Assembly (NCBI GenBank): GCA_964627815.1
Contig: CAZVKE010000008.1
Location: 182,116 to 246,115, forward strand
Source: an uncultured Leptospiraceae bacterium
GTDB taxonomy: Bacteria; Spirochaetota; UBA4802; JAGODF01
DNA length: 64,000 bases
Direction: 5' to 3'
Part shown: positions 641-19,956 of the stretch, piece after piece
How positions within the stretch are numbered: position 1 is the first letter of the stretch
How the letters are laid out: every line of letters begins with the position of its first letter
Notes under the pieces: generated by a model
The model's database searches: none
What the model was told of the DNA's origin: nothing
Seen by the model: only the letters and a program-made list of their open reading frames with translations
Made by a program: the position numbers and the translations under genes

Positions 641-1741
641 CTACAGGCCCTGCAGATACGAAATTATTTCCCTGATGCTCTTGATCATCTCGGCGGCCCC
701 GAGCTTGATGGCCTCACGCGGCATTCCGAATACGACCGAAGAAGACTCATCCTGCGCGACCGTTATCGCGCCCGCCTCTCTCATTTCGAGCAGTCCCGCT
801 GCCCCGTCGGCGCCCATGCCGGTCAGAATGACGCCGATCGATTTTTTTCCGGCAATCTGCGCCACGGAGCGGAACAGGACGTCCACCGACGGACGGTGCC
901 GGTTGACGGGCAGGCCGTCGTTTACCTCGACGTAATATCCCCGACTGTCATACCTTACAAGCAGGTGCCGGTTCCCGGGAGCGATCAGGGCCGATCCCTT
1001 ATTGACGCGATCGCCGTTTTCGGCTTCCTTGACGTAGAGCTTTGAGATCGAATTGACGCGGTTTGCGAACGCTTCGGTGAATTTTTCCGGCATGTGCTGG
1101 ACTATTACGATCCCCGGGAGCGTGTCCGGCAGCGCGCTTAAAATTTCGGCGATAGCTTCGGTACCGCCCGTTGACGCGCCGATCGCGATGAGCGTATCGC
1201 TGGCTTCGGTTCGTATCGTCTTGGCTGGTTTTGCCGGTAAGATAACATCAGCGGAATATTTCTGCTCGACCTTGATCCCGCCGGCGGGAAGCGGCGCTTT
1301 CGCCACGGGTTCCGGGCGCGGGGTTATTCTCCTGCGGACATTGGACGAACCCGAGGCGATCACTTTTTCTATCAGGTCCTCGGAGAACTTTTCCCATGAC
1401 TGGGCGTTGTCGGATTTCGGTTTGAGCACGAAATCGACGGCCCCGCGCTGGAGCGCCTCTATCGTTTTGCTCGCTCCCTCGTCGGTCAGCGCGCTCACCA
1501 TGATTACAGGCATGGGATGGGAAATCATCAGTTTGGAAAGGAAGGTCAGGCCGTCCATGCGCGGCATTTCGATATCAAGGGTAAGAACATCAGGCTCGAG
1601 CTTCTGTATTTTTTGCGCGGCGATATACGGATCGATCGCGGTGCCCACAACTTCTATTTTTTTTGAGCGCGAGAGCGCTTCGGTGAGCGTTTTCCGCATC
1701 ACCGCGGAATCGTCGACGATCAATACTTTTATCGTATCCAT
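641..1741 (-). CDS. cheB: Chemotaxis response regulator protein-glutamate methylesterase CheB
   Basis: 366 aa. N-terminal receiver (VLIVDDSAVMRK, LDIEMPRMDG) plus methylesterase domain (IGASTGG, HRPSVD, GMGADG). Start overlaps the cheD stop (ATGA). Confidence 0.95.
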   Translation of the reverse strand: MDTIKVLIVDDSAVMRKTLTEALSRSKKIEVVGTAIDPYIAAQKIQKLEPDVLTLDIEMPRMDGLTFLSKLMISHPMPVIMVSALTDEGASKTIEALQRGAVDFVLKPKSDNAQSWEKFSEDLIEKVIASGSSNVRRRITPRPEPVAKAPLPAGGIKVEQKYSADVILPAKPAKTIRTEASDTLIAIGASTGGTEAIAEILSALPDTLPGIVIVQHMPEKFTEAFANRVNSISKLYVKEAENGDRVNKGSALIAPGNRHLLVRYDSRGYYVEVNDGLPVNRHRPSVDVLFRSVAQIAGKKSIGVILTGMGADGAAGLLEMREAGAITVAQDESSSVVFGMPREAIKLGAAEMIKSIREIISYLQGL

Positions 1742-2298
1742 CAGCGTTCCTCGTTCCTCCAGGCGAAATGTCTTATTCTGATTTTCCTGTCGCGCAACAG
1801 TTCAATTTTCCGGTTTTTCTTGAGAAACACTCTCCCCGTCGAAGCATCCATCAGCACCTTTCTCGAAAAGTGCCCGTATACATCGGATTCAACGATCGGT
1901 ATGTCCTCAAGTTCCAGCAACACGCGGGCAAGCCGCACATTCTCTTCCTGAATTGTAAGCTTTCTGCCGGTGTGGTCAAGAACAATTCCGCCCCCGAAAA
2001 TCTTTGCGATGAGGTTCTTCTTTTCGGCTCCTGAATCCAGCATGGAATCGACCAGGCGGCGGATCGCGTATATTCCATACTTCGAACCGAGCCCGATGTA
2101 AATGTTTTCTGATACTATCTTGCCGGGAAGCATGAAGTGGTTCATTCCCGAAATCCTTCCCACGGGATCATGAAGACAGACGGCGACGCATGAACCGAGA
2201 AGGGTACCGATCATTTCGTCACGGGGAGTGACGTAGAGCTCACCCGCGTTTATGATTTTCAGCGGTTTCCCGTATTTCATGCTGGTATGCGAATACAT
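1741..2298 (-). CDS. cheD: Chemoreceptor glutamine deamidase CheD (paralog 1)
   Basis: 185 aa with the CheD Cys/His signature LLGSCVAVCL...GMNHFMLPG. ATGA overlaps with both neighbours. Confidence 0.9.
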   Translation of the reverse strand: MYSHTSMKYGKPLKIINAGELYVTPRDEMIGTLLGSCVAVCLHDPVGRISGMNHFMLPGKIVSENIYIGLGSKYGIYAIRRLVDSMLDSGAEKKNLIAKIFGGGIVLDHTGRKLTIQEENVRLARVLLELEDIPIVESDVYGHFSRKVLMDASTGRVFLKKNRKIELLRDRKIRIRHFAWRNEER

Positions 2299-3137
2299 CA
2301 GGTGACCTTCCCGTATACCGACCTGCCCCTGAAATAAAACAGGTTGGACACACTCGTAAGGGTCTCGGAATGCCCGATAAAGAGGTAACCGTCGTTGTTC
2401 AGGTATTTGTAAAACTGTTTAAAGAGCTTGATCTGCGATTCGCGGTCAAAATATATCACGACATTCCTGCAGAAAATGATGTCAAACGTGTTTTTCATCG
2501 GGAAGGAGTCGTCAAGAAGGTTCAGTCTCCGGAAATGGATCAACTGCTTTACCTCGTCCTTCATCCGGTAATAGCCGGCGTTTGCGCCGACTCCCTTGAG
2601 CGCATAGCGGCGAAGCACGTCGCGGTCGATGATCTTCACGACTTCTTCTTTATAAACGCCCTCGGTCGCCGAATCGAGAACCCTGGTGTCGATGTCGGTG
2701 GCGAGGATCTTGATATCGGGGAGCTTCCGGTCCTTGTAATACTCAAGCAGGGTGATGGCGATCGTATACGGCTCCTCTCCGGTAGAGCACCCCGCGCTCC
2801 AGATTCGAAGCGAGGTTTTGCGCTCGCGCTCGTAGCGGGGAAGCGCCTCGTTGTTCAGGTAATCGAAATGACCCGATTCCCTGAAAAAATCGGTCTTGTT
2901 GGTGGTGATGCAGTTGATGAGGTTGATCTTTTCCTCAGTAAAATTCTCCTGAAGGTAGTTATAGTAATCGTGAAAGTCACGCAGGCCGAGCTCTCTCATC
3001 CGGCGCATGAGCCGGGACTGTACCAGCGCCTTTTTCAACGGGGAAAGATTGATCCCGCTCTCCCGGTATATTATTTCGCGGAAAAGATCGAAATCGGCGT
3101 CATTGAGCTCGGCGATAAGGTTTGGATAATTGGCCAT
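2298..3137 (-). CDS. cheR: Chemotaxis protein methyltransferase CheR
   Basis: 279 aa. N-terminal helical CheR domain plus SAM-methyltransferase motifs LRIWSAGCSTGEEPYTIA and DIIFCRNVVIYFD. Confidence 0.95.
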   Translation of the reverse strand: MANYPNLIAELNDADFDLFREIIYRESGINLSPLKKALVQSRLMRRMRELGLRDFHDYYNYLQENFTEEKINLINCITTNKTDFFRESGHFDYLNNEALPRYERERKTSLRIWSAGCSTGEEPYTIAITLLEYYKDRKLPDIKILATDIDTRVLDSATEGVYKEEVVKIIDRDVLRRYALKGVGANAGYYRMKDEVKQLIHFRRLNLLDDSFPMKNTFDIIFCRNVVIYFDRESQIKLFKQFYKYLNNDGYLFIGHSETLTSVSNLFYFRGRSVYGKVT

Positions 3138-3142
3138 GTCTG

Positions 3143-3733
3143 TTACTCGAAAACTATGACTTTTCCGTATTTATCCTTTTCACGGAACGCGCGATTGATA
3201 TATTCCCTCTCCATCCTTGTGAACTCGGAAGATTCACTGTTGTTTTCCAGAATTTTCCGGAACGCCCTTCCGCTGGCGGGCTGAAAATAAACTTTTCTTC
3301 GAAGGACCCCACCCAGGTCTTCGCTGATGATGGGGATTTTCTCCATCTTGAAATACTCGTCGATAAAGGTTAAGATACTGTTTTTAACTCCATCCGACCA
3401 TGAATTTACGTACGGCACGTTCGCAACGCCGAATATTTTTGCGTTCAGGTTTTTTCTGTCCCCCCCGAGCTTGACGATCTCGCCCATGAGGTATTCCATA
3501 TTGGTGATGCCGTGCGTGCCGATCTCGTCGCGGTATATCCCCTCCGTTCCCATGGCGCCGGGTATGATGAAATGCCCCATTCCCCCGATCCGCCGCGTGG
3601 AATCATACAGGCAGATCACCATACAGGAACTGCTCACGGTGCCCAGAATACAATCCTCCCTTGTCGCGAAATATTCGCCGGGGTAGAGGACGTAGAGTGG
3701 CTTCCCGAACTCGCTTTTGTTGCTCTTGATCAT
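3143..3733 (-). CDS. cheD: Chemoreceptor glutamine deamidase CheD (paralog 2, C-terminally extended)
   Basis: 196 aa with VSSSCMVICL...GMGHFIIPG, so the same Cys/His positions as paralog 1. It has an extra ~35-aa charged tail. Confidence 0.85.
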   Translation of the reverse strand: MIKSNKSEFGKPLYVLYPGEYFATREDCILGTVSSSCMVICLYDSTRRIGGMGHFIIPGAMGTEGIYRDEIGTHGITNMEYLMGEIVKLGGDRKNLNAKIFGVANVPYVNSWSDGVKNSILTFIDEYFKMEKIPIISEDLGGVLRRKVYFQPASGRAFRKILENNSESSEFTRMEREYINRAFREKDKYGKVIVFE

Positions 3734-3760
3734 CTCGTTCTGATGTCCACGACATCGATA

Positions 3761-4288
3761 TCAGCCTTTAACGGCCATGTTGTCATCACGGGTCCTTTCG
3801 ATGCGCTCGAGGTCCTCGGAGCTGAGGATCCTGTCAACATCGAGAACGATGATCAGCTGGTCTCCTTTCTTCGCGACTCCCTTGATGTAATCGGTGTCAA
3901 TGTTCGAGCTGAAGTGCGGCGTCTCCTGGATGCTCGACAGGGGAAGCCCCACGACATCGGAAACCGCGTCCACGATCATGCCGACGAGCGAGCCCTTGAC
4001 CTCGATAATGAGTATCACGGTGAATTTTGTGTAGTCCTGCTCCTGCATCTCGAGCTTCAGGCGCATATCGACGACCGGGACCACCGAACCGCGCAGGTTG
4101 ATGACGCCTTTCATGAAATGCATGCTGTTCGGCATGTGGGTGATCTGAGTCATGCCGATGATCTCCTGCACCTTTAGGACCTCGACACCATACACTTCAT
4201 TGCTGATGTTGAAGGTCACGTACTGCTCCATCTGTTCGATTTCAGCCTCGTTCTGCTTACGCTTCAGGCTCTCCTTGATGTTTTCCAT
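3761..4288 (-). CDS. cheW: Chemotaxis coupling protein CheW
   Basis: 175 aa single CheW-like domain (YVTFNISNEVYGVEVLKVQEI, INLRGSVVPVVDMR, LIIVLDVDRIL). Confidence 0.9.
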   Translation of the reverse strand: MENIKESLKRKQNEAEIEQMEQYVTFNISNEVYGVEVLKVQEIIGMTQITHMPNSMHFMKGVINLRGSVVPVVDMRLKLEMQEQDYTKFTVILIIEVKGSLVGMIVDAVSDVVGLPLSSIQETPHFSSNIDTDYIKGVAKKGDQLIIVLDVDRILSSEDLERIERTRDDNMAVKG

Positions 4289-4299
4289 AACTTACTCCT

Positions 4300-4671
4300 T
4301 TATCGCACAAGTTTTTTTACTACGTTAACAAGCTGTTCCGGCTGGAACGGCTTGACGAGCCATCCTGACGCCCCCGCGTCCTTTCCTTCCTTGATTTTCG
4401 TCTCTTCAGATTCCGTGGTCAGCATGATGACGGGCGTAAACCGGTCGTCTTTTCTGAATTCGCGCACGAAACTTATTCCGTCCATTTCAGGCATGTTTAC
4501 GTCAACGACACAGGCGGCAAGATCGTTTCCCTGTTTTTTAAGGGTCTTAACTTTTTCAAGCGCATCTTTTCCGTTTTCCGCCTGCGATATGGGATACCCT
4601 ATTCCCTTGAGGGCGTATTCCACGCTCATACGGATCGTTGCGGAATCATCGATAACAAGAATGTGTTTCAT
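4300..4671 (-). CDS. cheY: Single-domain response regulator CheY
   Basis: 123 aa receiver (ILVIDDSATIRM, VVDVNMPEMDG, LVKPF) inside the che operon. Confidence 0.9.
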   Translation of the reverse strand: MKHILVIDDSATIRMSVEYALKGIGYPISQAENGKDALEKVKTLKKQGNDLAACVVDVNMPEMDGISFVREFRKDDRFTPVIMLTTESEETKIKEGKDAGASGWLVKPFQPEQLVNVVKKLVR

Positions 4672-4685
4672 TATTAATCCTCCCT

Positions 4686-4940
4686 TTATTTAACCAATCC
4701 AGCTATCACGAGCTGCTGCCGCAATTCTGGTGATACTTTCTTGAGTTTGATTATTTTGTTTTCGTTTCTGGCCGTCTTTTGCGCGGCGATCAGCACCTGC
4801 GCGAGAGCGAGATCGACCCGCCCGACCCTTGAGAAATCCAGAGTGATCTCCTGGTTCGTTTCAAGGAGATTCAGAAGAGTGCCGTGAAATTCACGGATCG
4901 TCTTGATCCCCGTGTCCTCTGTCAGTTCTAACAGTGCCAT
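4686..4940 (-). CDS. Short STAS-domain protein (anti-sigma-antagonist fold) without the canonical DSSG phospho-serine
   Basis: 84 aa. The LDFSRVGRVDLALAQVLIAAQK segment aligns to the lDls.v.fiDSSG region of SpoIIAA-like STAS proteins, but Leu/Ala replace Ser-Ser-Gly. Confidence 0.6.
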   Translation of the reverse strand: MALLELTEDTGIKTIREFHGTLLNLLETNQEITLDFSRVGRVDLALAQVLIAAQKTARNENKIIKLKKVSPELRQQLVIAGLVK

Positions 4941-4949
4941 AATCCCTCC

Positions 4950-6731
4950 CTAAAAAATGTATACACGTTCTTCGGGGAGCTGGTGCTGGTATTCCGAAAT
5001 CATGGATATGAGCATTCTGGTGCGGTACTCCCCGTTTTTTTCGCACTCGCTCAGATACTGCCGCATCATGTCCGCGTCGCGGTCGTGTTCCCTGGCCCCG
5101 CCCTGATGCGTTTTTTGGGCTATTCGGGAAACTTTGTCAAACAGCGACTTCAGCGTGTTTTTCAGATCGGTGATGGCCTCTATCTCCCCCGACTCGTTTT
5201 CGATGAAGCCGAGCATTCTGGTACAGGTGCCTCCCACTTCCTCTGAAATGTCCTGGTAATATTTTTTCGATTCATTGAGCTTTACCGATATTTTGCGCAT
5301 TGCCTGGATGCAGTTGTTAAGGGTGCGCTCCTGAACAAGATAGTTTTCCTGATATTCGCGGATAGATGATTCCATATACTGCGCGACCATCGCGTTGGTC
5401 GAAAGTGAACGCTCGATGATTTTCTTCATCTGGGTGGGAAGGTCGCGCACGCCGGTAAGGGCGCCGGTGAGCGTCTTTTTCAGGCTCGAGTGGCGCGCCA
5501 GCTCTATCTTGGTCAGCATGTTGATGATCTCGAAGCGTTTCGCTATCTGTACGAGCTCGTTGAAGAAGATCGAAAATTTGCCGAGTACGTCCAGTATCCT
5601 GCTTGAAAGCTCGAAAAGCTCACGCTTCCCCTCGATGATTTTCTGGATATAGCTGATATACTCGTTTTTCATGTTTTCGAGCTTTTCATATACCGTATCC
5701 AGCTTCTCGCCCTCATAGTACTGTTTGCCGTCACCGTGGGTTCCGTAGAAGCGGCTGATGAACCTGTTGAGAATGTCCTTGATCCGATCGTTGCACTCCG
5801 TGTTTCCCGTAATGAGGTGTTCGATATGGTGCTCGAGCCCCTGTATCTTGCTCATGCTCATCCCGTAGAGCAGTTCGGCGATACGCCCTGCCATGCCCGG
5901 ATCGCCGCTCCTGTCGAAAAGCCGGTCGTTGCCGTTTTCTGCTTCCTCAAGCGCGAATATAACTTTTTCAAGGTCCTGCCTGACAAGGTCCTCGGTCTGG
6001 AGCCATTCCATCACGTTGGTGATCGAACTCTCCACTTCCTCTGAATAGTTCATGATTTCCGCGACGTTCGCCGACAGCCTTCCCAGGTCGGTCAGTATTT
6101 CTCCGAATACCAGGCTGCTTTTCACCTTCATCTGGGTGAGGTAGTTTTCATTGGTGATGTCGATCTTCTCCCTTATCGATGAGAATTCATCGTAGGAAGC
6201 TTCCAGGGTCTGAAGGAGGGAGATGAATTCAGTCGAGATTTTTCCGGCCTTGTCCGAAAGCACCGTCATCTCAGAGGATATCTGCGCCAGCGTTTCCCCT
6301 TCGGTCCCGGCCTTGGTGGATATCAGCATCGTGTTTACCGAATAAATGTCGATTGCCTCTATCATCGTCAGTATTTCATCCACGCTCTTGCGTATTTCCA
6401 GCGTGCGCTGGATCGACTCGGCGATACTGTTGTTGATCCGGCTGTCCCCCTGCATGATCGCGACGGCCTCATCGATGGCGCCGTTCATTTCGTCCCTGCT
6501 TGGAATCACCACATCGCCCGCAAACGACTCGGAGGCCGTTTCCGGGTTGAGCGGATAGAAATAGTTGATATAGGGAGAGATGATCGTCCGGAACTCGCCG
6601 ATCTTCCTTGAGGTCGTTAACATGAAATCGCCCAGCTCCCCGAAAAGGGAGGAAATGTTGTCCTTCAGGACGAGGAGCCTTCCTCTTTCCTCGGCGACCG
6701 TTCCGATATCTGTAACCGTGTCTGTTGACAT
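4950..6731 (-). CDS. Hypothetical 593-aa soluble coiled-coil protein (X593) with two degenerate MCP-signalling-hairpin-like segments
   Basis: Long ORF tightly packed between cheA and the STAS gene. I saw no TM segment. aa 117-168 and aa 391-436 resemble the MCP tip (IAxQTNLLALNAAIEAARAG..GFAVVAxEVRxLA) only loosely, for example IAKRFEIINMLTKIELARHS...TGVRDLPTQ. Confidence 0.5.
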   Translation of the reverse strand: MSTDTVTDIGTVAEERGRLLVLKDNISSLFGELGDFMLTTSRKIGEFRTIISPYINYFYPLNPETASESFAGDVVIPSRDEMNGAIDEAVAIMQGDSRINNSIAESIQRTLEIRKSVDEILTMIEAIDIYSVNTMLISTKAGTEGETLAQISSEMTVLSDKAGKISTEFISLLQTLEASYDEFSSIREKIDITNENYLTQMKVKSSLVFGEILTDLGRLSANVAEIMNYSEEVESSITNVMEWLQTEDLVRQDLEKVIFALEEAENGNDRLFDRSGDPGMAGRIAELLYGMSMSKIQGLEHHIEHLITGNTECNDRIKDILNRFISRFYGTHGDGKQYYEGEKLDTVYEKLENMKNEYISYIQKIIEGKRELFELSSRILDVLGKFSIFFNELVQIAKRFEIINMLTKIELARHSSLKKTLTGALTGVRDLPTQMKKIIERSLSTNAMVAQYMESSIREYQENYLVQERTLNNCIQAMRKISVKLNESKKYYQDISEEVGGTCTRMLGFIENESGEIEAITDLKNTLKSLFDKVSRIAQKTHQGGAREHDRDADMMRQYLSECEKNGEYRTRMLISMISEYQHQLPEERVYIF

Positions 6732-6748
6732 AGTGCCTGCCGGGCCTC

Positions 6749-8857
6749 TTACCTTCTGATCTCGCCTATCAACCCGTGAATGTCGATGATGAGGGCGATG
6801 CTCCCATCGCCGAGTATCGCGGCGCCGGAGATCGACCTGCTTTCAGTGATGCCCTTTTCAAGGCTTTTGATCACGGTCTGGTACTGCCCCAGGAGATCGT
6901 CGACCATGATCGCGATTTTTTCTCCCGACGATTCCACGATGACCAGCAGCGCTTCCCATGGATTGATGTGGTCGGCCTTGATCCCGAAATGCGTGTACAT
7001 CCGGATCAGGGGCACGTAATCTTCGCGGACCATCACCATCTCCCGCTTCCCTTCGATCGTTTTGACGGAATCCTGTTTGGCCTGTATCGTTTCCATGATC
7101 GAGAGGAGCGGAATGATATACCGGTTGGCGCCGATACGCACGAGCATCCCGTCGATTATGGCGAGCGTCAGCGGCAGCTTGATGCGGAAGGTCGTTCCGC
7201 GCCCTTCGAGGGTCTCTATTTCAACGGTACCCCTGAGCGACTCGATGTTGGTCTTGACCACATCCATACCCACGCCGCGCCCGGAAAGGTCTCCCACGGC
7301 CGTGGCTGTTGAGAAACCGGGGAGGAAGATGAGCGAGAGAAGCTTGCTGTCGTGTATCTCCTCATCCGGGCTGATAAGCTCTCTCTTGATCGCCTTCTCG
7401 AGGATCTTCTTCCTGTCGATGCCTCGCCCGTCGTCAGTCACTTCGATGAAGACGCTTCCTTCCTGGTGGTATGCCCTGAGTTTGACTGTCCCGTAAGGAT
7501 ATTTTCCCGCGGCGACGCGCTCCTCGGGAGATTCGATGGCGTGGTCAATGGCGTTGCGGATCATATGTTTCAACGGATCGCTGATCTTTTCGATGACGGT
7601 CTTGTCAAGCTCGGTTTCCTTTCCTTCCATCTCGAGCCGTATGTCTTTTCCCACGTTGTGGGCCGCGTCGCGCACAAAGCGCATGAACTGCTCGAACGTC
7701 GGGCCGATCGGTATCATCCGTATCGACATGATCTGTTCCTGGAACTCGCGCGTCGTGCGGTCCAGCGAATGGAGCGCGTTTTTCATACGGAATGAGATCT
7801 CGTCGTCCTCGATGTCGTCGGCTATACGCGCGATCGACGACTGGCCGATGACAATCTCGCCGAGGAGGTTCATCAGGTTGTCCATCTTTGTCGTGTCGAC
7901 ACGCACCGTGCCGGTATCCACCTTCTTCCTGATCCGCTCCTGCTCGTTGAGGGCGTTGTTGATATCGCCGGGCGTGGCAAAGCCTTTTTCGACGACGATG
8001 TCGCCGAGCTTGCGGTTTTCCTTCTCCTGCGCTTGTATCGCCTCGGCCAGCTCGTTTTCCGAAAGAATGCCCTTGTGGAGAAGAATCTCGCCGATCTTCT
8101 TCTCGGTGACATGCTTCTCGTTCTCGCCGGTAGCGTACTCGGCGGTAATGTCCTCTATTTCGATGTCATTGTCTTCCATGACGAAAAGAAAGGTTTCCTG
8201 AATATCCTTCAGGGGATGCGGGGATTTCATGACCAGCTTCCATCCGAGGTAGCATTTCTCGGGGTCCATCTCGCGGAATTCGGGAAGCTCGTTGCGGTCG
8301 GCGTGTTTGTAGATGACCTCTCCCATCGAGAAAAGGTCTTCCATGATGAGGAGGGGATCAATGCCGTGCTCGAAGGTTGTATCCTTAAACTGGGCCCGTA
8401 TCCGGTAATAACGGGTCCCTTCCTGTTTTGCGGTGCCCTCTTCATCCTCGTCAGCCGGTTTTTTCTCGCCCGGCGAAGTGTAGGATTCTATCCTTTCAAT
8501 AAGCAGCTTTTTTACGTCTTCAAGTTTCGAGCTTTCCCCTGTTTCGATATCAACACCGAACAGATCAAGCTTCATCCAGTCCAGGCTCTGAAGCAGGAGG
8601 TCGATTATGCCCTGGTCAACAGAGAGCTTTTCCGACCGGATCATGTCCATAAGGTTTTCGAGCTTATGATTGAATTCATATAACTCATCAAAACCCGCAA
8701 TGCCGGAACTCCCTTTCAGGGTATGGACATAGCGGAATATGTCATTGATGAGCTCTGCGCTGAAATTTTCCTCAAGACTGACGAGTTCCGACTCGAGCTT
8801 GTCAAGTATCTCTTTTGCTTCTTCCAGAAAAACTTCCCTGATCCCTGTATCGCTCAT
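6749..8857 (-). CDS. cheA: Chemotaxis histidine kinase CheA with an embedded MshEN/T2SSE_N-like module
   Basis: 702 aa. Hpt (FRYVHTLKGSSG), dimerisation, HATPase (HMIRNAIDHAIE, DDGRGID, GRGVGMDVV) and a C-terminal CheW-like domain. aa 254-306 match the two-motif MshEN consensus. Confidence 0.95.
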   Translation of the reverse strand: MSDTGIREVFLEEAKEILDKLESELVSLEENFSAELINDIFRYVHTLKGSSGIAGFDELYEFNHKLENLMDMIRSEKLSVDQGIIDLLLQSLDWMKLDLFGVDIETGESSKLEDVKKLLIERIESYTSPGEKKPADEDEEGTAKQEGTRYYRIRAQFKDTTFEHGIDPLLIMEDLFSMGEVIYKHADRNELPEFREMDPEKCYLGWKLVMKSPHPLKDIQETFLFVMEDNDIEIEDITAEYATGENEKHVTEKKIGEILLHKGILSENELAEAIQAQEKENRKLGDIVVEKGFATPGDINNALNEQERIRKKVDTGTVRVDTTKMDNLMNLLGEIVIGQSSIARIADDIEDDEISFRMKNALHSLDRTTREFQEQIMSIRMIPIGPTFEQFMRFVRDAAHNVGKDIRLEMEGKETELDKTVIEKISDPLKHMIRNAIDHAIESPEERVAAGKYPYGTVKLRAYHQEGSVFIEVTDDGRGIDRKKILEKAIKRELISPDEEIHDSKLLSLIFLPGFSTATAVGDLSGRGVGMDVVKTNIESLRGTVEIETLEGRGTTFRIKLPLTLAIIDGMLVRIGANRYIIPLLSIMETIQAKQDSVKTIEGKREMVMVREDYVPLIRMYTHFGIKADHINPWEALLVIVESSGEKIAIMVDDLLGQYQTVIKSLEKGITESRSISGAAILGDGSIALIIDIHGLIGEIRR

Positions 8858-8905
8858 GGCACACTTCCCTCTGATCTGTAATAGGTGTCACAAAAAAAAC
8901 TGTTC

Positions 8906-10930
8906 TTAAAACTCAACAAATCCCTGGTCGGACATCGTTTTTGCGATGTCTTTAGGGTCTTTCTTTTCTGTTTCGTCGGGCTTTTTATCGCCGCCTGCGG
9001 CCTCAGGTTTTTTCTCATCCTGCTTCTGCGGCGTCGTATGCTCCGCGGCGCGCAGGTGTATTTCATGCCTGTTCGTTCCCATGTCGTCGATGATCGTCCG
9101 GCTTATTTTGAATTTCTCGACCATCGAAAGCATCTCCTGCGCCTGGTTCGCCATCTCTTCGCTTGCCGAGGCGGTCTCTTCCACGAGGGCGGAGTTCTGC
9201 TGTGTCATATTGTCCAGTTCCATTACGGCGATATTGATCTGGTCGAGGCCCTGTTTCTGCTCCTCGCTCGCCGCCGATATCTCCGAAATCAGGGTACCGA
9301 CCCTGTTCACCGACTCGATGATCTCCCTGAGCGCCTCGCCGCTCTGGTTGACAAGCTGTGTGCCGTTCTCGATTTTTTCCACTGAAGACTGGATGAGCAC
9401 GCTGATCTCCTTCGCGGCGGTCCCTGCCCGCTGTGCGAGGTTGCGGACTTCTCCCGCGACGACGGCGAAGCCGCGCCCCTGTTCTCCCGCCCGGGCCGCC
9501 TCGACGGCGGCGTTCAACGCCAGCAGATTAGTCTGGAACGCTATTTCATTGATGACCGATATGATTTCCTCGATCTTGCGGCTCGATTCGTTGATCTCAT
9601 TTATTGAATTTACCGAATCCACGACAATCTGCCCTCCCTGCGAGGCGAGGTGCGACGTGGTCGTCGACATTTTATTGGCTTCCATCGCGTTATCGGCGTT
9701 CTGCCTTATCGTGGCGGTGGCCTCCTCTATGGTCGAGGCGATCTCCTCGAGAGAGGATGCCTGCTCAGAGGTGCGCTGTGAGAGGTTTTCATTGCCGCTC
9801 GCGATTTCCTGGACCGCCTGTGAAAGGTTCTGGGCGCTCAGTACGAGTTCTGAAATGAGTTTCTCGAACTGGTTCATGGATTCGTTCACCGCTTTGGCCA
9901 TATCGCCGATTTCGTCATCGGTGATCGTTCCCGTGTAGCGGCCCCGAAGGTCGCCCTGCGCCATGTCGTTGATGACGTTTCTGCATTCATCGAGCGGCTT
10001 GAGCCGTTTGGCGATTACGTAATAGATCGCGATTGCGGTTAAAATCAGACCGAGAAGGCCGAAAATGACCATCGTCGCCGCCATGGCCCGCGCGCTCTCG
10101 TTGATGTCAGACACGAACATGGTGCTGGCGGTTATGAAGCCGAACCGCGTGTTGCGGGTGAGGGACAGGATCTTTCCTTTACCCTGCCATTCGTACCTGA
10201 TCACCGTTCCGTCCGCGGAGGCCATCGCCCGCTTTCCCCACTCCTCGTCTTTCATATTCAGCTTAAGAATCATATCCTTGCTGGGATGGGCGAATACCAG
10301 GCCGTTTATTTCAGCAACGAACGGATATCCGGTGGCCCCGATTTTAACGCCTTCGATCATTGCCTGTGAAAAAGTACTAACGTCAACGACGAGCCCCAGT
10401 ATCCCGGTAATGGTGTTTCCGTTTTTGATCGGTGCTGCGACAGCTATTATCGGAAGATTGGTGACCATCGATTTCTGGGGGGAGGATATAGCGGTTTTGC
10501 CTTCGAGCGCGTTTTTGATAATTTCATGGTATGCCGGATTATTGCTCACCCTGGTCCCCACCGCTTTCGGATTCGTCGCGGCGATGATATCGCAGTTGTT
10601 GTCGGCCGAGCCGATAAATATGTACTGATAGATACCGTGACGGTCCTGGAAGTCTTTCAGCATGCGTATGGCCTCGCCGAGATTTCCTTTTGATACCGAG
10701 TCGGTGCTTGCAAGAAACTCGGCGGTGTTTTCCTGCTGAATGTAAAAAAGCTCAAGCTGCTGGGCGATGTCTTTATTGAAGTTCTGCAGCTGGTTCAGGT
10801 AGGCGTTTTCCACAGCGTCATACGATGCGTTGTACGATATCGCGACAAGAATGATCGTAAGGACCGCAACGATTCCGACAACAATTCCGGCCAGTATCGC
10901 CTTCAGGCTTCTGAACATTCTGATATTCAT
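8906..10930 (-). CDS. mcp: Methyl-accepting chemotaxis protein (N-terminal TM, Cache-like periplasmic domain, HAMP, MCP signalling domain)
   Basis: 674 aa. Canonical tip IAFQTNLLALNAAVEAARAGEQGRGFAVVAGEVRNLAQR. Ends in a charged linker plus GFVEF. Confidence 0.9.
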   Translation of the reverse strand: MNIRMFRSLKAILAGIVVGIVAVLTIILVAISYNASYDAVENAYLNQLQNFNKDIAQQLELFYIQQENTAEFLASTDSVSKGNLGEAIRMLKDFQDRHGIYQYIFIGSADNNCDIIAATNPKAVGTRVSNNPAYHEIIKNALEGKTAISSPQKSMVTNLPIIAVAAPIKNGNTITGILGLVVDVSTFSQAMIEGVKIGATGYPFVAEINGLVFAHPSKDMILKLNMKDEEWGKRAMASADGTVIRYEWQGKGKILSLTRNTRFGFITASTMFVSDINESARAMAATMVIFGLLGLILTAIAIYYVIAKRLKPLDECRNVINDMAQGDLRGRYTGTITDDEIGDMAKAVNESMNQFEKLISELVLSAQNLSQAVQEIASGNENLSQRTSEQASSLEEIASTIEEATATIRQNADNAMEANKMSTTTSHLASQGGQIVVDSVNSINEINESSRKIEEIISVINEIAFQTNLLALNAAVEAARAGEQGRGFAVVAGEVRNLAQRAGTAAKEISVLIQSSVEKIENGTQLVNQSGEALREIIESVNRVGTLISEISAASEEQKQGLDQINIAVMELDNMTQQNSALVEETASASEEMANQAQEMLSMVEKFKISRTIIDDMGTNRHEIHLRAAEHTTPQKQDEKKPEAAGGDKKPDETEKKDPKDIAKTMSDQGFVEF

Positions 10931-10955
10931 ATCATTCTCCTTATATCCCGCATTC

Positions 10956-12971
10956 CTAAAATTCGACGAACCCGTCGTCTTTGAGGGTCCTGGCGGTTCC
11001 CCCCTTTTGCGGTTTTACGGGGCTTTTCCGCGCAATCCTTGATGCCGCCGGTGAAGATTCGGCTGATCGTGCAGCCTTGATGTGAACCTCGCGGTGCTTG
11101 GTTGAATAGGAGGCCGTTTCGACAGTCTCGCGTACCTTGAAGCGTTCCATCATCGAGAGCAGTTCCTGGGCCTGGTTCGCCATCTCTTCGCTTGCGGACG
11201 CCGTTTCCTCGACGAGCGCGGCATTCTGCTGGGTCATGTTGTCAAGCTCCGAAACGGCAACGGTGATCTGGTCCATACCCTGTTTCTGTTCCTGGCTCGC
11301 GGCCGAAATTTCCGAAATCAGCGCGCCCACCTGATTGACCGCATCGATAATCTTGCGCAGCGCCTGCCCGCTTTCGTTGACGAGCCGGGTCCCGTTTTCG
11401 ACCTTCCCGATAGATGTCTTGATAAGATCGGCGATCTCTTTAGCCGCGGTGCCGGAGCGTTGCGCGAGATTGCGCACCTCGCCGGCAACGACCGCGAACC
11501 CTCTTCCATGATCGCCCGCACGCGCGGCCTCGACCGCGGCGTTAAGCGCGAGAAGGTTGGTCTGAAACGAGATTTCATTAATGACGGATATAATATCGCC
11601 GATTTTCTTGCTTGTGCTGTTTATCTCATTTATCGCCACCACCGATTCGTCGATGATCTTTCCGCCGCTTTCGGCGAGCTGCGAGGTCCTGCCGGACATT
11701 TCATTGGCTTCCACAGAGTTTTCCGCGTTCTGGTTGATGGTGGAGCTTGACTCTTCGAGGGTCGACGCGATCTCTTCCAGCGAGGATGCCTGTTCGGTCG
11801 TCCGCTGTGACAGGTTCTGATTGCCGCTCGAAATTTCGCTTACCGCCTGTGCGAGGTTCTGTGCGCTCACGACCAGCTCCGCGATGAGCTTTTCGAACTG
11901 GTCAAGTGAGTTGTTCACCGCATGCGAGATATCCCCGATCTCATCGCGGGTCTGACGGCCTTCGTAGCGGCGCGTGAAATCGCCGCGCGCCATCTGGCCC
12001 ATTATGTCCCGGCACACTTCAAGCGGTTTTAGCCTGCTTGCGATCACGAAGTAGATAAGCAGTCCCGCCGCGATCACGCCCAGTAAGGTAAAGAGAATCA
12101 TCTGCAGCGCCATAACTCTCGCCTGGCTGTTGATATCCGACATGAACATCGTCGAGCCGACGATAAAATGGAACCGGTCGCTCACGATAAAGGTCTGGAT
12201 CTTCTCCAGCCCCTGGAACTCGTACTTCAGCACGCTTCCCGATGGCATTGAGAGGAGTTTTCTGCCCCAGTCGAATGTCTTGATATCCATCTTCAGGATA
12301 AGATCTTCCTGCGGGTGTGCGAAGGTGAGCCCGTCGGCCCTCATGATGTAGGCGTAGCCGGTATTTCCTATTTTCACGTTTTTGATAAGGTTCTGTGAAA
12401 ACTTGCTCAGCTCTACCGCGAGTCCGACAATCCCGACGATCCGGTTATTGTCCATGATCGGCGCCGAAACGAGCACAACCGGGAGGCCGGTAATCGGGGA
12501 CTTCTGGGCCTGGCTCACCCAGGATTTTCCCTCCAGCGCCTTAGTGATGTTCTCGTCGTACCCGATCCCCCCCCATCGCGTTCCGGCGCCCTTGCGTGAG
12601 CCGGACACGATTACCTGCGGGTTCTGTTCGGCGCTTGAAAGGAATACGTTCTCATATGTTCCGTACTTATCGAAGAAATTATTCAGTGTCGGCGCGGCCA
12701 TCCCGAAATTTTTAGTGATTGCGGCAGTTACGACCGCGGGTGTGGCGGCCAGAAATTCCGCATGCCGCATTTCTGAATCGAAAAATCCGGTCAACTGCCG
12801 GTCGAGATCTTTGTTTATGTTGGTAAGCTGGTTGACAAATGCGCTTTCAACGGATCTGCGTGCGGCGTTATATGATATGAGCACCAGAATTATTGAAAGC
12901 AGAATGATAATGGCAACAACAATGGACGATAACACAATTTTGAGACTGCGAAACTTTTCTTTAATGTTCAT
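10956..12971 (-). CDS. mcp: Methyl-accepting chemotaxis protein, tandem paralog of the preceding MCP
   Basis: 671 aa with the same architecture and tip (ISFQTNLLALNAAVEAARAGDHGRGFAVVAGEVRNLAQR). Also ends in GFVEF. Confidence 0.9.
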   Translation of the reverse strand: MNIKEKFRSLKIVLSSIVVAIIILLSIILVLISYNAARRSVESAFVNQLTNINKDLDRQLTGFFDSEMRHAEFLAATPAVVTAAITKNFGMAAPTLNNFFDKYGTYENVFLSSAEQNPQVIVSGSRKGAGTRWGGIGYDENITKALEGKSWVSQAQKSPITGLPVVLVSAPIMDNNRIVGIVGLAVELSKFSQNLIKNVKIGNTGYAYIMRADGLTFAHPQEDLILKMDIKTFDWGRKLLSMPSGSVLKYEFQGLEKIQTFIVSDRFHFIVGSTMFMSDINSQARVMALQMILFTLLGVIAAGLLIYFVIASRLKPLEVCRDIMGQMARGDFTRRYEGRQTRDEIGDISHAVNNSLDQFEKLIAELVVSAQNLAQAVSEISSGNQNLSQRTTEQASSLEEIASTLEESSSTINQNAENSVEANEMSGRTSQLAESGGKIIDESVVAINEINSTSKKIGDIISVINEISFQTNLLALNAAVEAARAGDHGRGFAVVAGEVRNLAQRSGTAAKEIADLIKTSIGKVENGTRLVNESGQALRKIIDAVNQVGALISEISAASQEQKQGMDQITVAVSELDNMTQQNAALVEETASASEEMANQAQELLSMMERFKVRETVETASYSTKHREVHIKAARSAESSPAASRIARKSPVKPQKGGTARTLKDDGFVEF

Positions 12972-13169: not shown

Positions 13170-13865
13170 TTATTTCATGTTTGTGGTCTGGATCCAGTGT
13201 ACCGCGACCTGAATAAGCTCTGCTGAATCCTGGAGGTTCATCTTCTGTTTTATATTCTGGCGGTGGGTCTCGATGGTCTTGATGCTGAGGTTGAGCTGCT
13301 TGGCGATCCTTCTGGTGCTGAAGCCGCGCCCTATCAGGCGGAAGACCTCGAGCTCTCTGTTGGTGAGCCCTTCGACAAGCGTGTAGTTGCTGTCCTCGGA
13401 TTTCATCGCATCCCCGCGCAACAGGCGCTGCAACAGGCGCGATTTTATCCGTTCGCTGACGAAAATTTCGCCCTTCATCACCTGGTGGATCGCCTTGATG
13501 AGCGTATCGGTTGCTTCCTGTTTCATCACGTATCCCATGGAGCCGGATCTTATCGCCCGCTCGGCATACAGGTTTTCATCGTGCATCGAGAGTACGAGGA
13601 GGGTGATATCGGGACGGCGCGAATGGATTGCCTTGATCAGGTCCAGACCGCTGTCCTCCTCGAGAGAGAGGTCCACCAGCACCAGCTTCGGCTCGGTTTC
13701 CTTGATGACTTCCCATCCCTCCGAGGAGTTTTTTGCCTCGCCGCACACGATCATATCCTCCTGCATGTTGATGAGCTGGGCGATCCCGTGGCGTACGATA
13801 GGATGGTCGTCTACGATGACGATCCTTATCTTTTTTTCGGTTTTCACGCCGTTTCGGTCTGCCAT
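13170..13865 (-). CDS. NarL/LuxR-family response regulator
   Basis: 231 aa. Receiver (IVIVDDHPIVRHG, VLVDLSLEEDSG) plus LuxR HTH (LTNRELEVFRLIGRGFSTRRIAKQLNLSIKTIETHRQNI). Confidence 0.9.
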   Translation of the reverse strand: MADRNGVKTEKKIRIVIVDDHPIVRHGIAQLINMQEDMIVCGEAKNSSEGWEVIKETEPKLVLVDLSLEEDSGLDLIKAIHSRRPDITLLVLSMHDENLYAERAIRSGSMGYVMKQEATDTLIKAIHQVMKGEIFVSERIKSRLLQRLLRGDAMKSEDSNYTLVEGLTNRELEVFRLIGRGFSTRRIAKQLNLSIKTIETHRQNIKQKMNLQDSAELIQVAVHWIQTTNMK

Positions 13866-13878
13866 TTAAGCGCTCCTG

Positions 13879-16848
13879 TCATGAATCTCGGGACGTACGT
13901 TTCCTGTTCCTGAATGAACAGCTTACGATCGTGCCCCCGTTTTCCGGGTGAAGGATTTCGAAGGTCGCGTTGATGATGTCGGCCCGGTGCCTCATGAGGT
14001 TGAGGCCCAGGCCCTTTCCCGCCCTTGTGCCTTCGTGGAATCCCGTTCCGTCATCCCGGACCATAAAACTGACGGTATCTTTATCCTGGTGGAATGCAAT
14101 TTCAATCACTTTTGCGTGGCTGTGTTTGACGGCGTTGTTCACCGCTTCCTTTACGATGTAGTAAACGTGAAGCGCCACGCTGCTCTCCTGGATCTGGATC
14201 GGGCAGTCGCAGTGAAGCCTGCACGATATCCCGAAAAGCTCTTCAGTGTTCATGGCCAGTTCCTCGAGCGCGTCCATGAGGCCGCGTTTTTCGAGGCTGA
14301 CCGGATTGAGCCCTTTCGAAAGGATGCGCGTCACGTCGATGGCCATGTTGATCAGGTCGGTGATTTTCGTGGCGTCCTCGATCTCGCCGAGTTTTTTTTC
14401 CTTGAGCTTGCTTTCCAGCACCTTGCTCATGAAGGCGATGCCCGTAAGGTGCTGGCCCAGGCCGTCGTGCAGGTCGCGGCCGATACGCTGCTGCTCTTCG
14501 GCGCTGATCTGGAGGATTTCCCTCGTGAGCTTGCGTCTCTCGGTGATGTCAAGGATCGAGCCGACATGGAGGTTGGTGTCGGAAATGATGGAGAAATTTC
14601 CGATACACTCTCGCACCTCGCCCGATTTGTTGATATAGGAGAACTCGACCTGAAATGGCGCCGATTTAGGGTCCTTCATGCTGCGTTTCTGGTACTTCAT
14701 CAGCATGTCGAGCTCTTCTTCCTGCACGAAGTCGGTCCATTTTCGTTTTCCCTCGATTTCCTCGCGGGAGAAGCCGGTCAGCTGCTCCATTCTCCTGTTC
14801 ATGAGCGTGATGGTCATCCTGTTGTCGAAGATGATCATCGCGGTGCCCGAGGTTTCGAAAATCGTGCGGTATTTCTCTTCGGACATGCGAAGTTCCGCCT
14901 CCATGTATTTGCGGACCGTGATGTCGCGGCAGGCGGCATGGAACAGCTTCTTGCCGTGGACCGATATCGTAGTGAGGGTTATCTCGATCGGAATGATGCG
15001 CCCGTTTGACTGGAAGAAATCCCACTCGAAGTTTACGCTTCCCTTCCGGAGCGCCTGGGTGATGTTGTTCCTGTCCTGTATCACGGAAAGCGTGCCGTCA
15101 GGCTGGTGTTCGGGGGAGATATCGGAAGGGTGTTTTCCCAGAATGTCTTTCTTGTCGGAGTAGCCCAGGAGCCGCAACGCCGAATGGTTGCAGTCAATGA
15201 ATACGTTGTCTTCAAGGATCAGCTGCCCGTCTTCGGACTGGTCGAAGAGGCGGTGAAACTTCTCCTCGCTCTCCTTGAGCGCCTTTTCCGTCTCCTTCAG
15301 CGCCGTGATGTCCCTGATTGCCTCTATCCCCCCCACCATGTTGCCGCTCGAATCGCGGATCGGTGACGCTTTCCCCCAGAGGTACGCGCCGGACCCGCTG
15401 CGCAGAAGGGGCGAATACGATTCGGCGTACAGGATGTTTCCTTCCTTTGCTACATTTTCATATCCCATGTCGTCGAGCCGCTCGGGGGAATCGAGGAGAT
15501 CGATAAGGATCGGGCGGATGTACCCGTAAAGAGGAAGGGAATACTCATGGCCGGACTTGCCGAGTATGTCTGCCTTGTGAACGCCGGTTAAAAGCTCCAT
15601 TGCCCGGTTCCACGCGATGACCCGTTTGTTGCGGTCGATAACAAACGTCGCGTCGGGAAGGAACTCGATGATGTCATTGAGGCGGCCGATCGCCTCTTTC
15701 CGCTCCTCATGCGCCTTTCGCAGCTCGGTGATGTCGCGGATTATCGAGATCAGGCACGGACGGCCTTCGATCTCGATCCTTTCGGCCGAGAAGAGCGTGT
15801 CCAGCGTTCCCTCTTTCAGGTTGAATTTGATCTCGAGGTTTCGGATCGGTTCGCCTTTACTGATCTTATTAAGTATATCCCCGCGTATTGATTTTTCGGG
15901 CCACAGGTTGAGTTCAATCGAGGTTTTCCCTATGATCTCCTCGCGTGAGTATCCTGTTTTCCTGATAAACTCCTCGTTAACGTCGATAAGCGTCCCGCTA
16001 TCGATAGTGCTTATCGCCATTGAATCGGGGCTCGACTGGAATATTTTATAGAATTTATCTTCCGAGCGACGGAGGTTTTCCTCGAGGATTCTTCTTTTGG
16101 TGATGTCGATCCCCACGCAGAGGATCTCTTTCATTCCTGTCTCGGGATCGGTAATGACGCGGTTGTTCCACGATATCCAGGCGCGTTCGCCGCTCTTTTT
16201 GATGTTCTCGTTTTCGTTGCTCGAATACTTTTCGGGGTTTTGTATTATGTCCTGTAATAATTCGGACAGATCCCGCCCCTGCGAATCGATCATCGGCACA
16301 ATTGTTCCCAGCCCGCTTTTGCCGAGCACTTCTTCGGCGGTATATCCGAAAAATGACTGCGCGAATTCATTAAAGAAAGTTATTTTCCATTCAGCATCCA
16401 TTCGCAGAATGATGCTGTTGGCGTTTTCCACCAGCTCGCGGTACTTCTTTTCGCTTTCCTTGAATTTTTTCTCGATCCCGTGCTTGTGCAGCGCCATCTC
16501 GATAGCGGAGAAAAGCTCGTCGTCCTTGAACGGCTTGACAATGTATCCGTACGGGACCGCGGATTTTGCCCGTTTCAGTGTCTGCCTGTCGGCGTGCGCG
16601 GTCAGGAAAATGACAGGAATGGCGAACTCGGTTTGTATGATACGGGCGGTCTCAATGCCGTCGATATTCCCCTGGATGACAATATCCATAAGGACGAGGT
16701 CGGGCCTCTGAAGGGTGACGGACGCTATTGCTTCCTGGCTGGTTGTGGCGATCGAGGTGATGGAGTATCCAAATGTCTCCAGCTTCTCCCTTATATCAAG
16801 CGCGGTAATGCTCTCATCCTCGGTGATGAGGATCGCTGGTCTTTTCAT
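13879..16848 (-). CDS. Hybrid sensor kinase: N-terminal receiver, multiple PAS domains, HisKA_3 and HATPase
   Basis: 989 aa. REC (ILITEDE...LVLMDI...VKPF), repeated PAS-like blocks, NarX-type H-box (QRIGRDLHDGLGQHLTG), and ATPase N/G boxes (EAVNNAVKHS, DDGTGF, GLGLNLM). Confidence 0.9.
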   Translation of the reverse strand: MKRPAILITEDESITALDIREKLETFGYSITSIATTSQEAIASVTLQRPDLVLMDIVIQGNIDGIETARIIQTEFAIPVIFLTAHADRQTLKRAKSAVPYGYIVKPFKDDELFSAIEMALHKHGIEKKFKESEKKYRELVENANSIILRMDAEWKITFFNEFAQSFFGYTAEEVLGKSGLGTIVPMIDSQGRDLSELLQDIIQNPEKYSSNENENIKKSGERAWISWNNRVITDPETGMKEILCVGIDITKRRILEENLRRSEDKFYKIFQSSPDSMAISTIDSGTLIDVNEEFIRKTGYSREEIIGKTSIELNLWPEKSIRGDILNKISKGEPIRNLEIKFNLKEGTLDTLFSAERIEIEGRPCLISIIRDITELRKAHEERKEAIGRLNDIIEFLPDATFVIDRNKRVIAWNRAMELLTGVHKADILGKSGHEYSLPLYGYIRPILIDLLDSPERLDDMGYENVAKEGNILYAESYSPLLRSGSGAYLWGKASPIRDSSGNMVGGIEAIRDITALKETEKALKESEEKFHRLFDQSEDGQLILEDNVFIDCNHSALRLLGYSDKKDILGKHPSDISPEHQPDGTLSVIQDRNNITQALRKGSVNFEWDFFQSNGRIIPIEITLTTISVHGKKLFHAACRDITVRKYMEAELRMSEEKYRTIFETSGTAMIIFDNRMTITLMNRRMEQLTGFSREEIEGKRKWTDFVQEEELDMLMKYQKRSMKDPKSAPFQVEFSYINKSGEVRECIGNFSIISDTNLHVGSILDITERRKLTREILQISAEEQQRIGRDLHDGLGQHLTGIAFMSKVLESKLKEKKLGEIEDATKITDLINMAIDVTRILSKGLNPVSLEKRGLMDALEELAMNTEELFGISCRLHCDCPIQIQESSVALHVYYIVKEAVNNAVKHSHAKVIEIAFHQDKDTVSFMVRDDGTGFHEGTRAGKGLGLNLMRHRADIINATFEILHPENGGTIVSCSFRNRKRTSRDS

Positions 16849-17211: not shown

Positions 17212-18261
<1,050 letters not shown>

Positions 18262-18364
18262 GAGCGCGGATTCGTGCCGCCCCTGCGCACGGGCTCAGGG
18301 ATACTGAAAATAAGCTCCTGTCCGGTCCCGGAAGAGGACGGGGGCGGTGTGGAGCATTAATGTA

Positions 18365-19117: not shown

Positions 19118-19205
19118 ATAATTGTCTCTTTTCAGCATATAGTTCGCTATCTGGTGAGCATATCCTCCAGTGGTTTGATATTTTTTACGGGACAGGAAAG
19201 CGTAT

Positions 19206-19646: not shown

Positions 19647-19764
19647 TCTTCGCGATTGTCCGCGTGATAACTCCCGGTGCCGGGGGTCATACCTGGGTAT
19701 GACGTGCGGCATTTCTTCGGGATATCAGGATCAGTAACATATAAAGAAGATGAGGAGGAAGAAT

Positions 19765-19956
19765 ATGGCGAAGATAGTGTATGTCGATCAGGCTGAATGT
19801 ACCGGATGCGAGTTTTGCGTCGATCTGCTTCCCGAGGTCTTCGAGATGACGCCCGAAGGGGTCAGTCATGTTCGCGATCCGAAGGGAGCAAGCGAGGAAA
19901 AAATACAGGAATGCATAGACGGGTGTCCCGCGGAGTGCATCCACTGGGAAGAGTAG
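19765..19956 (+). CDS. Small ferredoxin (single Fe-S cluster type)
   Basis: MAKIVYVDQAECTGCEFC...CPAECI. GAGGAGG lies 6 nt upstream of the ATG at 19765. Confidence 0.75.
   Translation: MAKIVYVDQAECTGCEFCVDLLPEVFEMTPEGVSHVRDPKGASEEKIQECIDGCPAECIHWEE

Follow-up and report, generated by a model that had tools for sequence, protein, structure and literature searches.

A candidate cyclic di-GMP receptor module of the MshEN_N type between the P2-like and dimerisation domains of CheA in a clade of Spirochaetota

In most bacteria, cyclic di-GMP (c-di-GMP) decides between swimming and settling, and the usual view is that this second messenger reaches chemotaxis indirectly, by PilZ adaptors or at the motor. 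The chemosensory locus described here raises the question of whether c-di-GMP might be received by the chemotaxis kinase CheA itself. This locus lies in a 64,000-nucleotide (64-kb) stretch of DNA from an uncultured Leptospiraceae bacterium (GenBank assembly GCA_964627815.1, contig CAZVKE010000008.1, forward-strand positions 182,116 to 246,115); the whole of this stretch is hereafter referred to as the window, and all coordinates are given in it. The encoded CheA carries, ahead of its dimerisation domain (P3), a short module of the type by which Vibrio cholerae MshE binds c-di-GMP (MshEN_N). Our reading is that this CheA serves a chemosensory operon that is complete, and that its MshEN_N bundle probably binds c-di-GMP and may alter kinase output through a short connector to P3.

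On the minus strand, the open reading frame (ORF) at 6749..8857 specifies a protein of 702 amino acids (aa), which was recognized as CheA by the NCBIfam CheA equivalog models (E 6e-143). Four Pfam families were found above their cutoffs, namely Hpt (residues 6-93), H-kinase_dim (317-379), HATPase_c (426-564) and CheW (570-699). A full-length AlphaFold2 (AF2) model built from 70 homologs reached a mean predicted local distance difference test score (pLDDT) of 81, and its top Foldseek matches were the E. coli and T. maritima CheA cores, the kinase core matching 6S1K, 3JA6 and 1B3Q at E 1e-34 to 1e-37. The P1 helices of this model span residues 3-30, 34-54, 57-74, 82-100 and 109-127. Conservation was assessed in a set of 70 relatives with 55-73% overall identity, among which H45 and the Gly/Asp/Asn positions of the kinase core (P4) are invariant; judged by these residues, CheA is catalytically intact. 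The architecture is read as P1(Hpt)-P2-MshEN_N-P3-P4-P5, with the MshEN_N module between the P2-like domain and P3. A first-pass annotation of this DNA, made from the letters and their translations, had placed the module between the Hpt and dimerisation domains; Pfam and AF2 support a position between the N-terminal domains and P3. The gene and its parts are listed below, where CheA residue n corresponds to 8857-3(n-1) down to 8857-3n+1.

6749..8857, minus strand: cheA, 702 aa (ORF, Pfam, NCBIfam, AF2, Foldseek)
8477..8851, minus strand: P1/Hpt five-helix bundle, aa 3-127, with phospho-acceptor His45 (Pfam Hpt, E 3.6e-16)
8414..8476, minus strand: P1-P2 linker, aa 128-148, predicted disordered (pLDDT <50 at 131-146)
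8129..8413, minus strand: P2-like putative CheY-docking domain, divergent, aa 149-243 (fold, Foldseek, weak Pfam P2)
8099..8128, minus strand: short P2-MshEN_N linker, aa 244-253 (pLDDT <50 at 243-249)
8027..8098, minus strand: MshEN_N motif 1 (helices α1-α2), aa 254-277, KIGEILLHKGILSENELAEAIQAQ (regular expression; aligns to V. cholerae MshE (VcMshE) R9-Q32)
8012..8026, minus strand: MshEN_N spacer, aa 278-282, EKENR, 5 residues
7940..8011, minus strand: MshEN_N motif 2 (helices α3-α4), aa 283-306, KLGDIVVEKGFATPGDINNALNEQ (regular expression; aligns to VcMshE R38-Q61)
7895..7939, minus strand: conserved connector, aa 307-321, joining MshEN_N α4 to the first helix of P3 (AF2, conservation)
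6752..7894, minus strand: kinase core, comprising P3 dimerisation (322-380), P4 ATP-binding (381-565) and P5 CheW-like (566-702) domains (Pfam, Foldseek)

The module itself was recognized by profile, sequence and motif searches. Residues 254-306 (7940-8098) read KIGEILLHKGILSENELAEAIQAQ-EKENR-KLGDIVVEKGFATPGDINNALNEQ, a tandem MshEN_N motif with the exact 24+5+24 layout over 53 residues; the coordinate arithmetic and the ORF translation agree here with the first-pass annotation. NCBIfam model NF053729 ('cyclic di-GMP-binding domain, MshE-related') covers residues 254-306 over profile positions 1-53 of 53, scoring 56.7 bits against the whole CheA (curated cutoff 38; E 1.5e-15) and 61.5 bits against an 81-aa fragment alone (E 4.7e-17). 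Searches of the PDB sequences with phmmer matched T. thermophilus PilF (E 7.7e-16), V. cholerae MshE 5HTL (E 4.8e-7) and several PilB proteins, and the 81-aa fragment also matched the MshEN_N parts of the NfrB models NF008411 and NF012033 and of EpsG (TIGR03029), with E values of 1e-6 to 1e-7. The relaxed 24-residue motif of Wang et al., [RK]hGxxhhxxGhhxxxxhxxxhxxQ, in which tandem copies are joined by about 5 residues, gave two matches in the six frames of the window, and these were both CheA halves; 30 shuffles yielded a mean of 0.33 single matches and zero tandem matches. The assignment of this segment as a 24+5+24 MshEN motif is therefore borne out by NF053729, the relaxed motif and the PDB matches, as well as by the predicted fold and the contact-residue conservation described below.

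The profile that had been suggested for checking aa 240-320, PF05157 (T2SSE_N/MshEN), matched neither CheA nor residues 240-320, even at E up to 10, whereas NF053729 gave a full-length match above its cutoff. In a PilB-type protein, PF05157 aligned to 90 residues after an MshEN_N stretch, and it appears to model the C-terminal subdomain rather than the 53-residue motif; since it appears to cover MshEN_C only, its silence does not amount to a refutation. The MshEN_C α/β subdomain is absent from CheA, where the bundle runs straight into P3 in the model, so that the protein carries MshEN_N alone and the description 'complete MshEN-type module' holds for MshEN_N, but not for a full MshEN domain. 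In CheA (aa 249-320) and in 29 relatives, the module is invisible to PF05157, which constitutes an annotation gap; sub-threshold Pfam cross-matches of the module among these 29 relatives were to FumaraseC_C (29/29), DUF4388 (22/29) and NHase_alpha (17/29). CheA surveys probably overlook the module because the common Pfam model misses its 53 residues.

As Foldseek returned only CheA-core and histidine-kinase matches for the full-length model, residues 145-320 were modelled separately (pLDDT 84). Both AF2 models place helices at 255-261, 267-280, 284-290 and 296-315, with pLDDT values of 76-89. The segment model superposed on c-di-GMP-bound MshE (5HTL) at a root-mean-square deviation (rmsd) of 0.8 Å over 56 columns with 36% identity, and on the c-di-GMP-bound PilF GSPII-B structures (8PDK, 8PFA, 9GL5) at 0.9 Å over 54 columns with 42-44% identity. 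The Foldseek E value was only about 1e-2 because the domain is very small, and weight was accordingly given to rmsd and identity. On these models, the module is a predicted four-helix bundle, with Gly-mediated turns between α1 and α2 and between α3 and α4, sharing its fold with MshE and PilF.

MshEN_N binds one c-di-GMP, chiefly by hydrophobic packing on both sides of each guanine, while guanine O6/N7 are contacted by backbone amides and the ribose-phosphate is held by two Gln residues (Wang et al., 2016, Nat Commun 7:12481; PMC5013675). When the phmmer alignment was combined with the contact map of these authors, VcMshE R9/L10/G11 corresponded to CheA K254/I255/G256, G18 to G263, L25/L29/Q32 to L270/I274/Q277, R38/L39/G40 to K283/L284/G285, G47 to G292, and L54/L58/Q61 to I299/L303/Q306; every contact position is thus identical or conservatively replaced in CheA. 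Further, among the 70 relatives, G256, G292 and Q306 are kept in all 70, G263, G285 and L303 in 69, Q277 in 65 and L270 in 64, while K or R occupies position 254 in 66 and position 283 in 69. The positions between the contact residues vary widely. Near-invariant contact residues among drifting neighbours argue for selection on the ligand site, and not just on a helical spacer. At the level of whole segments, the majority-residue fraction among the relatives is 0.62 for MshEN_N, 0.61 for P2 and 0.70 for the connector (307-321), with 0.23 for the P1-P2 linker and 0.35 for the P2-MshEN_N linker. Downstream of the module, α4 extends to residue 315 in AF2 and is followed by a short low-confidence hinge (316-318) and by the P3 helix from residue 322.

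The first-pass annotation had the module standing in place of P2, the domain on which CheY normally docks. Residues 149-243 are, however, predicted by both AF2 models to form a βαββαβ domain (pLDDT about 90), with strands at 149-156, 180-187, 205-212 and 231-236 and helices at 161-176 and 216-221. The first-ranked PDB match of the segment model in Foldseek was 1U0S_A, the P2 domain of T. maritima CheA with CheY, although this match is marginal (E 4.1e-3, TM score 0.62 on the target, 98 columns). Pfam P2 aligned over profile positions 2-80 of 81 at sub-threshold values (E 0.03 with the whole protein, 0.02 with the fragment), and when 29 relatives were scanned singly, it was found in 9 (best E 1.8e-4) and the CheY-binding model in 2, these two being the Pfam clan of PF07194 and PF09078. 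A profile search of the PDB sequences with residues 145-320 matched MshE and PilF and no P2 structure, so that the evidence for P2 consists of the fold and the weak Pfam matches. P2 domains are poorly conserved and often invisible to HMMER (PMC10782961). We regard residues 149-243 as a P2-like, putative CheY-docking domain, in view of its modelled fold and its position and of the marginal scores, and a replacement of P2 by MshEN_N is not supported, given this folded segment, its match to 1U0S_A and the P2 and CheY-binding matches of the relatives: the module most likely sits between P2 and P3.

The survey of CheA homologs for the same insertion, as called for in the first-pass annotation, showed that the feature is shared by a broad set of relatives. 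The closest CheA homologs all come from Spirochaetota metagenome bins. Of the top 120 homologs, 103 have the tandem motif, its halves being separated by 5 residues in 101 of them and by 4 in 2; a single half is matched by 16 of the remaining 17, and neither half by 1. A one-genome-per-species scan returned at least 72 loci matching fully through the module into P3, 70 of them labelled as uncultured Spirochaetota or Leptospirales bins, and 2 more matching P3 only; the scan relied on one narrow peptide pattern, L[ML]NLLGEIV, and is thus a sample of this clade without bearing on other phyla. Several related genomes contain two MshEN_N-CheA genes (locus pairs L019/L051, L050/L060, L015/L053, L044/L061 and L020/L027, the last pair being on the same contig, MIBJ01000031.1), which indicates that the kinase has been duplicated within the clade. 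In L. interrogans, a single MshEN protein has been reported, GspE (PMC12943098), and the CheA feature thus does not extend to that cultured species.

A wider profile search covered 1.84 billion representative proteins, from which the picture of the spread is qualitative only. The top matches were mostly multi-repeat MshEN_N proteins, not CheAs, and proteins with 3-8 tandem MshEN_N stretches were also observed. In Deltaproteobacteria and Ca. Adiutrix, CheAs 900-1079 residues long carry one to several MshEN_N stretches directly before P3, and the junction between module and P3 thus recurs in unrelated CheA lineages. Further arrangements included MshEN_N repeats in proteins that lack a kinase core and carry Hpt together with TSP3 or dockerin repeats (P0121, P0142), and CheAs of 980-1080 aa in which two Hpt stretches accompany several copies of MshEN_N ahead of P3 (P0185, P0186). 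To our knowledge, these multi-module architectures have not been described.

The combination of MshEN with CheA is itself not new, contrary to the novelty implied in the first-pass annotation. MshEN fused to CheA is listed in the main text of Wang et al. (2016), whose Supplementary Table 4 shows a CheA of A. veronii with exactly this domain order and whose Supplementary Table 6 gives c-di-GMP binding by residues 261-390 of that protein (EKB11881) with a dissociation constant (KD) of 2.6 µM (PMC5013675). The same work showed that isolated V. cholerae MshEN_N (1-65) binds c-di-GMP with a KD of 0.35 µM without MshEN_C (PMC5013675). Hence, by 2016 the concept, the architecture and the in-vitro binding of c-di-GMP by part of a CheA were already in print; the spirochaete CheA is a new example that extends them to another phylum, with a cleaner motif and across a large conserved clade. 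MshE and c-di-GMP go unmentioned in a 2023 survey of CheA architectures (PMC10782961).

By analogy with these proteins, it is likely that the present CheA binds c-di-GMP, probably one molecule per subunit, with an affinity that would be about micromolar or better and in the mode of V. cholerae MshE. In that mode, the position-1 Lys/Arg, through its aliphatic part, and a Leu/Ile cluster would enclose each guanine as a sandwich; the edge of the base would be recognized by backbone amides in the Gly-Asp/Glu turn, and the ribose-phosphate would be held by the terminal Gln. Most of the usually long and floppy P2-P3 tether is taken over by the module, leaving a 10-residue linker ahead of the bundle. 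The short, conserved connector suggests intramolecular coupling, and we infer that the ligand could stiffen or re-orient the MshEN_N-P3 junction through it, changing the reach or orientation of P1 and P2 relative to the ATP-binding domain (P4) and CheY, such that kinase output would follow cellular c-di-GMP besides chemoreceptor input. That binding changes kinase output is a step for which we hold the chances to be even, and we advance tentatively the more specific proposal that, in this spirochaete lineage, c-di-GMP directly switches CheA via an MshEN_N bundle rigidly coupled to the dimerisation helix. As for the sign, we guess that high c-di-GMP lowers kinase output.

Several observations weigh against control of the kinase by c-di-GMP. 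Within the module, position 1 of both motifs is Lys, where MshE has a guanine-stacking Arg, although K and R are interchangeable at this position among the relatives and the relaxed motif of Wang et al. permits K; position 12 of motif 2 is Ala (also in 69/70 relatives) where MshE has Leu; and the missing MshEN_C contributes one possible contact in MshE, D108. The coupling to P3 is drawn from AF2 modelling of a monomer, in which the hinge at 316-318 has low confidence. Pfam searches of about 50 ORFs together with motif regular expressions revealed no GGDEF, EAL, HD-GYP or PilZ gene in the 64-kb window, and c-di-GMP signalling in the organism is thus assumed from its relatives. In addition, literature searches on c-di-GMP and CheA returned no experiment on c-di-GMP altering the activity of any CheA.

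Given these points, the module might be a structural relic or spacer that sets the length of the P2-P3 tether, its stiffness or the packing of the subunits with no nucleotide bound. The Lys at position 1 and the missing MshEN_C would fit such a role, as would the 17 of 120 homologs that fail the strict tandem regular expression and the precedent of the many MshEN domains, such as XpsE, that no longer bind, their Gly, Leu and Gln positions being disrupted (PMC5013675). Yet the very positions disrupted in those non-binders are kept in 64-70 of the 70 relatives while their neighbours drift, which follows the ligand-contact map and not mere helix packing; moreover, isolated MshEN_N binds without MshEN_C, and the less canonical module of the A. 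veronii CheA still binds. We therefore consider a relic quite unlikely. Highly improbable, in turn, is a CheA devoid of a CheY-docking domain, in which the module replaced P2 and opened a previously unknown c-di-GMP route into chemotaxis: the sub-threshold score of Pfam P2 for this CheA and the location of the module after Hpt are what speak for it, and they are outweighed by the folded segment at 149-243 with 1U0S as its best structural match, by the relatives that match Pfam P2 or CheY-binding, and by the earlier publication of both the architecture and the binding by a CheA fragment.

An explanation of a different kind accepts binding and places its effect elsewhere, with the module governing localisation, array assembly or partner recruitment, for instance polar tethering, and not catalysis. 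MshEN_N does occur in many non-enzymatic and repeat contexts, including those with 3-8 tandem copies, the two such CheA operons of some genomes might need sorting, and basic catalysis in E. coli requires neither P2 nor the tethers (PMC10782961). On the other hand, in the characterised cases described in the sources consulted, the module regulates the enzyme to which it is fused, as in the MshE and PilB ATPases and in NfrB, whose NCBIfam name is that of a c-di-GMP-activated glycosyltransferase; the short conserved connector to P3 points to coupling within the molecule, and no evident partner gene is present in the operon. This alternative is, in our judgement, unlikely, and regulation of the kinase to which the module is fused remains the preferred reading.

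The genomic context is that of a chemosensory operon. On the minus strand, at 641-12971, Pfam and NCBIfam identified the order MCP-MCP-CheA-X-CheY-CheW-CheD-CheR-CheD-CheB, where MCP denotes methyl-accepting chemotaxis proteins and X a protein of 593 aa, and this gene order is conserved in the related loci. Besides cheA, the operon comprises the following genes:

10956-12971 and 8906-10930, minus strand: two transmembrane chemoreceptor (MCP) genes upstream of cheA (NCBIfam MCP models, E 1e-80 to 1e-106)
4950..6731, minus strand: protein of 593 aa without a Pfam family, encoded between cheA and cheY
4300-4671, minus strand: cheY (Pfam)
3761-4288, minus strand: cheW (Pfam)
3143-3733, minus strand: cheD-like (Pfam)
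2298-3137, minus strand: cheR (Pfam)
1741-2298, minus strand: cheD (Pfam)
641-1741, minus strand: cheB (Pfam)

For the 593-aa protein, the NCBIfam 'BB0569 family chemotaxis protein' model aligned colinearly but weakly (E 1.4e-3, well short of its cutoff), and there was weak similarity to MCP signalling-domain chains in the PDB (E 0.24-0.5). Its homologs occur in 12 of 74 related loci, at the same position in 10 and upstream of cheA in 2, and it may be a divergent cytoplasmic MCP-like or BB0569-like chemotaxis component. The two CheD-family genes (1741-2298 and 3143-3733, minus strand) flank cheR, and each is found in 54 of the 74 related loci. Directly upstream of the che operon (13170-16848, minus strand) lie the genes of a REC-5×PAS-HisKA_3-HATPase kinase (989 aa) and of a LuxR-type response regulator, a homolog of the latter occurring in 11 related loci and lying upstream of cheA wherever the flank extends far enough; the kinase and the regulator may form a linked regulatory pair. 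Elsewhere in the window, a protein of 901 aa (46073-48778, plus strand) carries GreA/GreB domains in its last ~155 residues, preceded by a ~745-residue N-terminal extension without a Pfam match. ORFs of 317-534 aa without a Pfam match (E ≤ 1e-4) were located at 18248-20832, 37666-38619 and 50199-51803 on the minus strand and at 22452-23942 and 39073-40329 on the plus strand.

If c-di-GMP does act on this kinase, a receptor inside the kinase would let the messenger rescale the output of the whole pathway at its source. CheA would then be shown for the first time to be gated itself by a second messenger, and the protein would offer a clean system for studying how CheA output depends on the geometry of the tether linking P1/P2 to the core. 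Throughout this clade of spirochaete CheAs, the module is conserved and under strong constraint, which makes a functional test worthwhile; the near-perfect motif and the conserved connector make the clade better suited to such a test than the A. veronii protein.

Among known systems, the closest is the A. veronii CheA, in which the module likewise lies between P2 and P3 in the same domain order. It differs in that its motif 1 starts M-L-G and its spacer is longer, whereas the spirochaete module is a perfect 24+5+24; the phyletic range given by Wang et al. is 'Actinobacteria, Proteobacteria', in contrast to the Spirochaetota origin of the present protein. V. cholerae MshE (5HTL) and T. thermophilus PilF GSPII (8PDK, 6F8L) have the same two-motif four-helix bundle and the same contact residues, but the module is N-terminal there, in secretion or pilus ATPases, and is followed by MshEN_C (PF05157), whereas the output of CheA is a histidine kinase. 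NfrB and EpsG-type proteins resemble this CheA in using MshEN_N as a portable c-di-GMP input to an enzyme, and differ in their output, a glycosyltransferase or a tyrosine kinase, and in the position of the module in the protein.

Other systems share the principle of direct input and not the domain. The histidine kinase CckA is reportedly controlled directly by c-di-GMP. In ShkA (PMC6969517) and SgmT (PMC3509222), as proposed for this CheA, c-di-GMP binds the kinase itself. The sites in ShkA, SgmT and CckA are of the pseudo-receiver/linker, degenerate GGDEF or catalytic-domain kind, and none of these kinases is a CheA. The view that known c-di-GMP inputs into chemotaxis act through separate adaptors holds in part, as it overlooks chemoreceptors with a built-in PilZ domain, such as Cbp1 (PMC6454048). 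The PilZ-containing chemoreceptors, together with the MapZ-CheR adaptor and the PlzC-CheX pair of V. cholerae (PMC12799141), likewise provide a second-messenger input to a chemosensory pathway; however, their PilZ domains act on receptors, a methyltransferase or a phosphatase, whereas the spirochaete CheA has its MshEN_N module within the kinase polypeptide.

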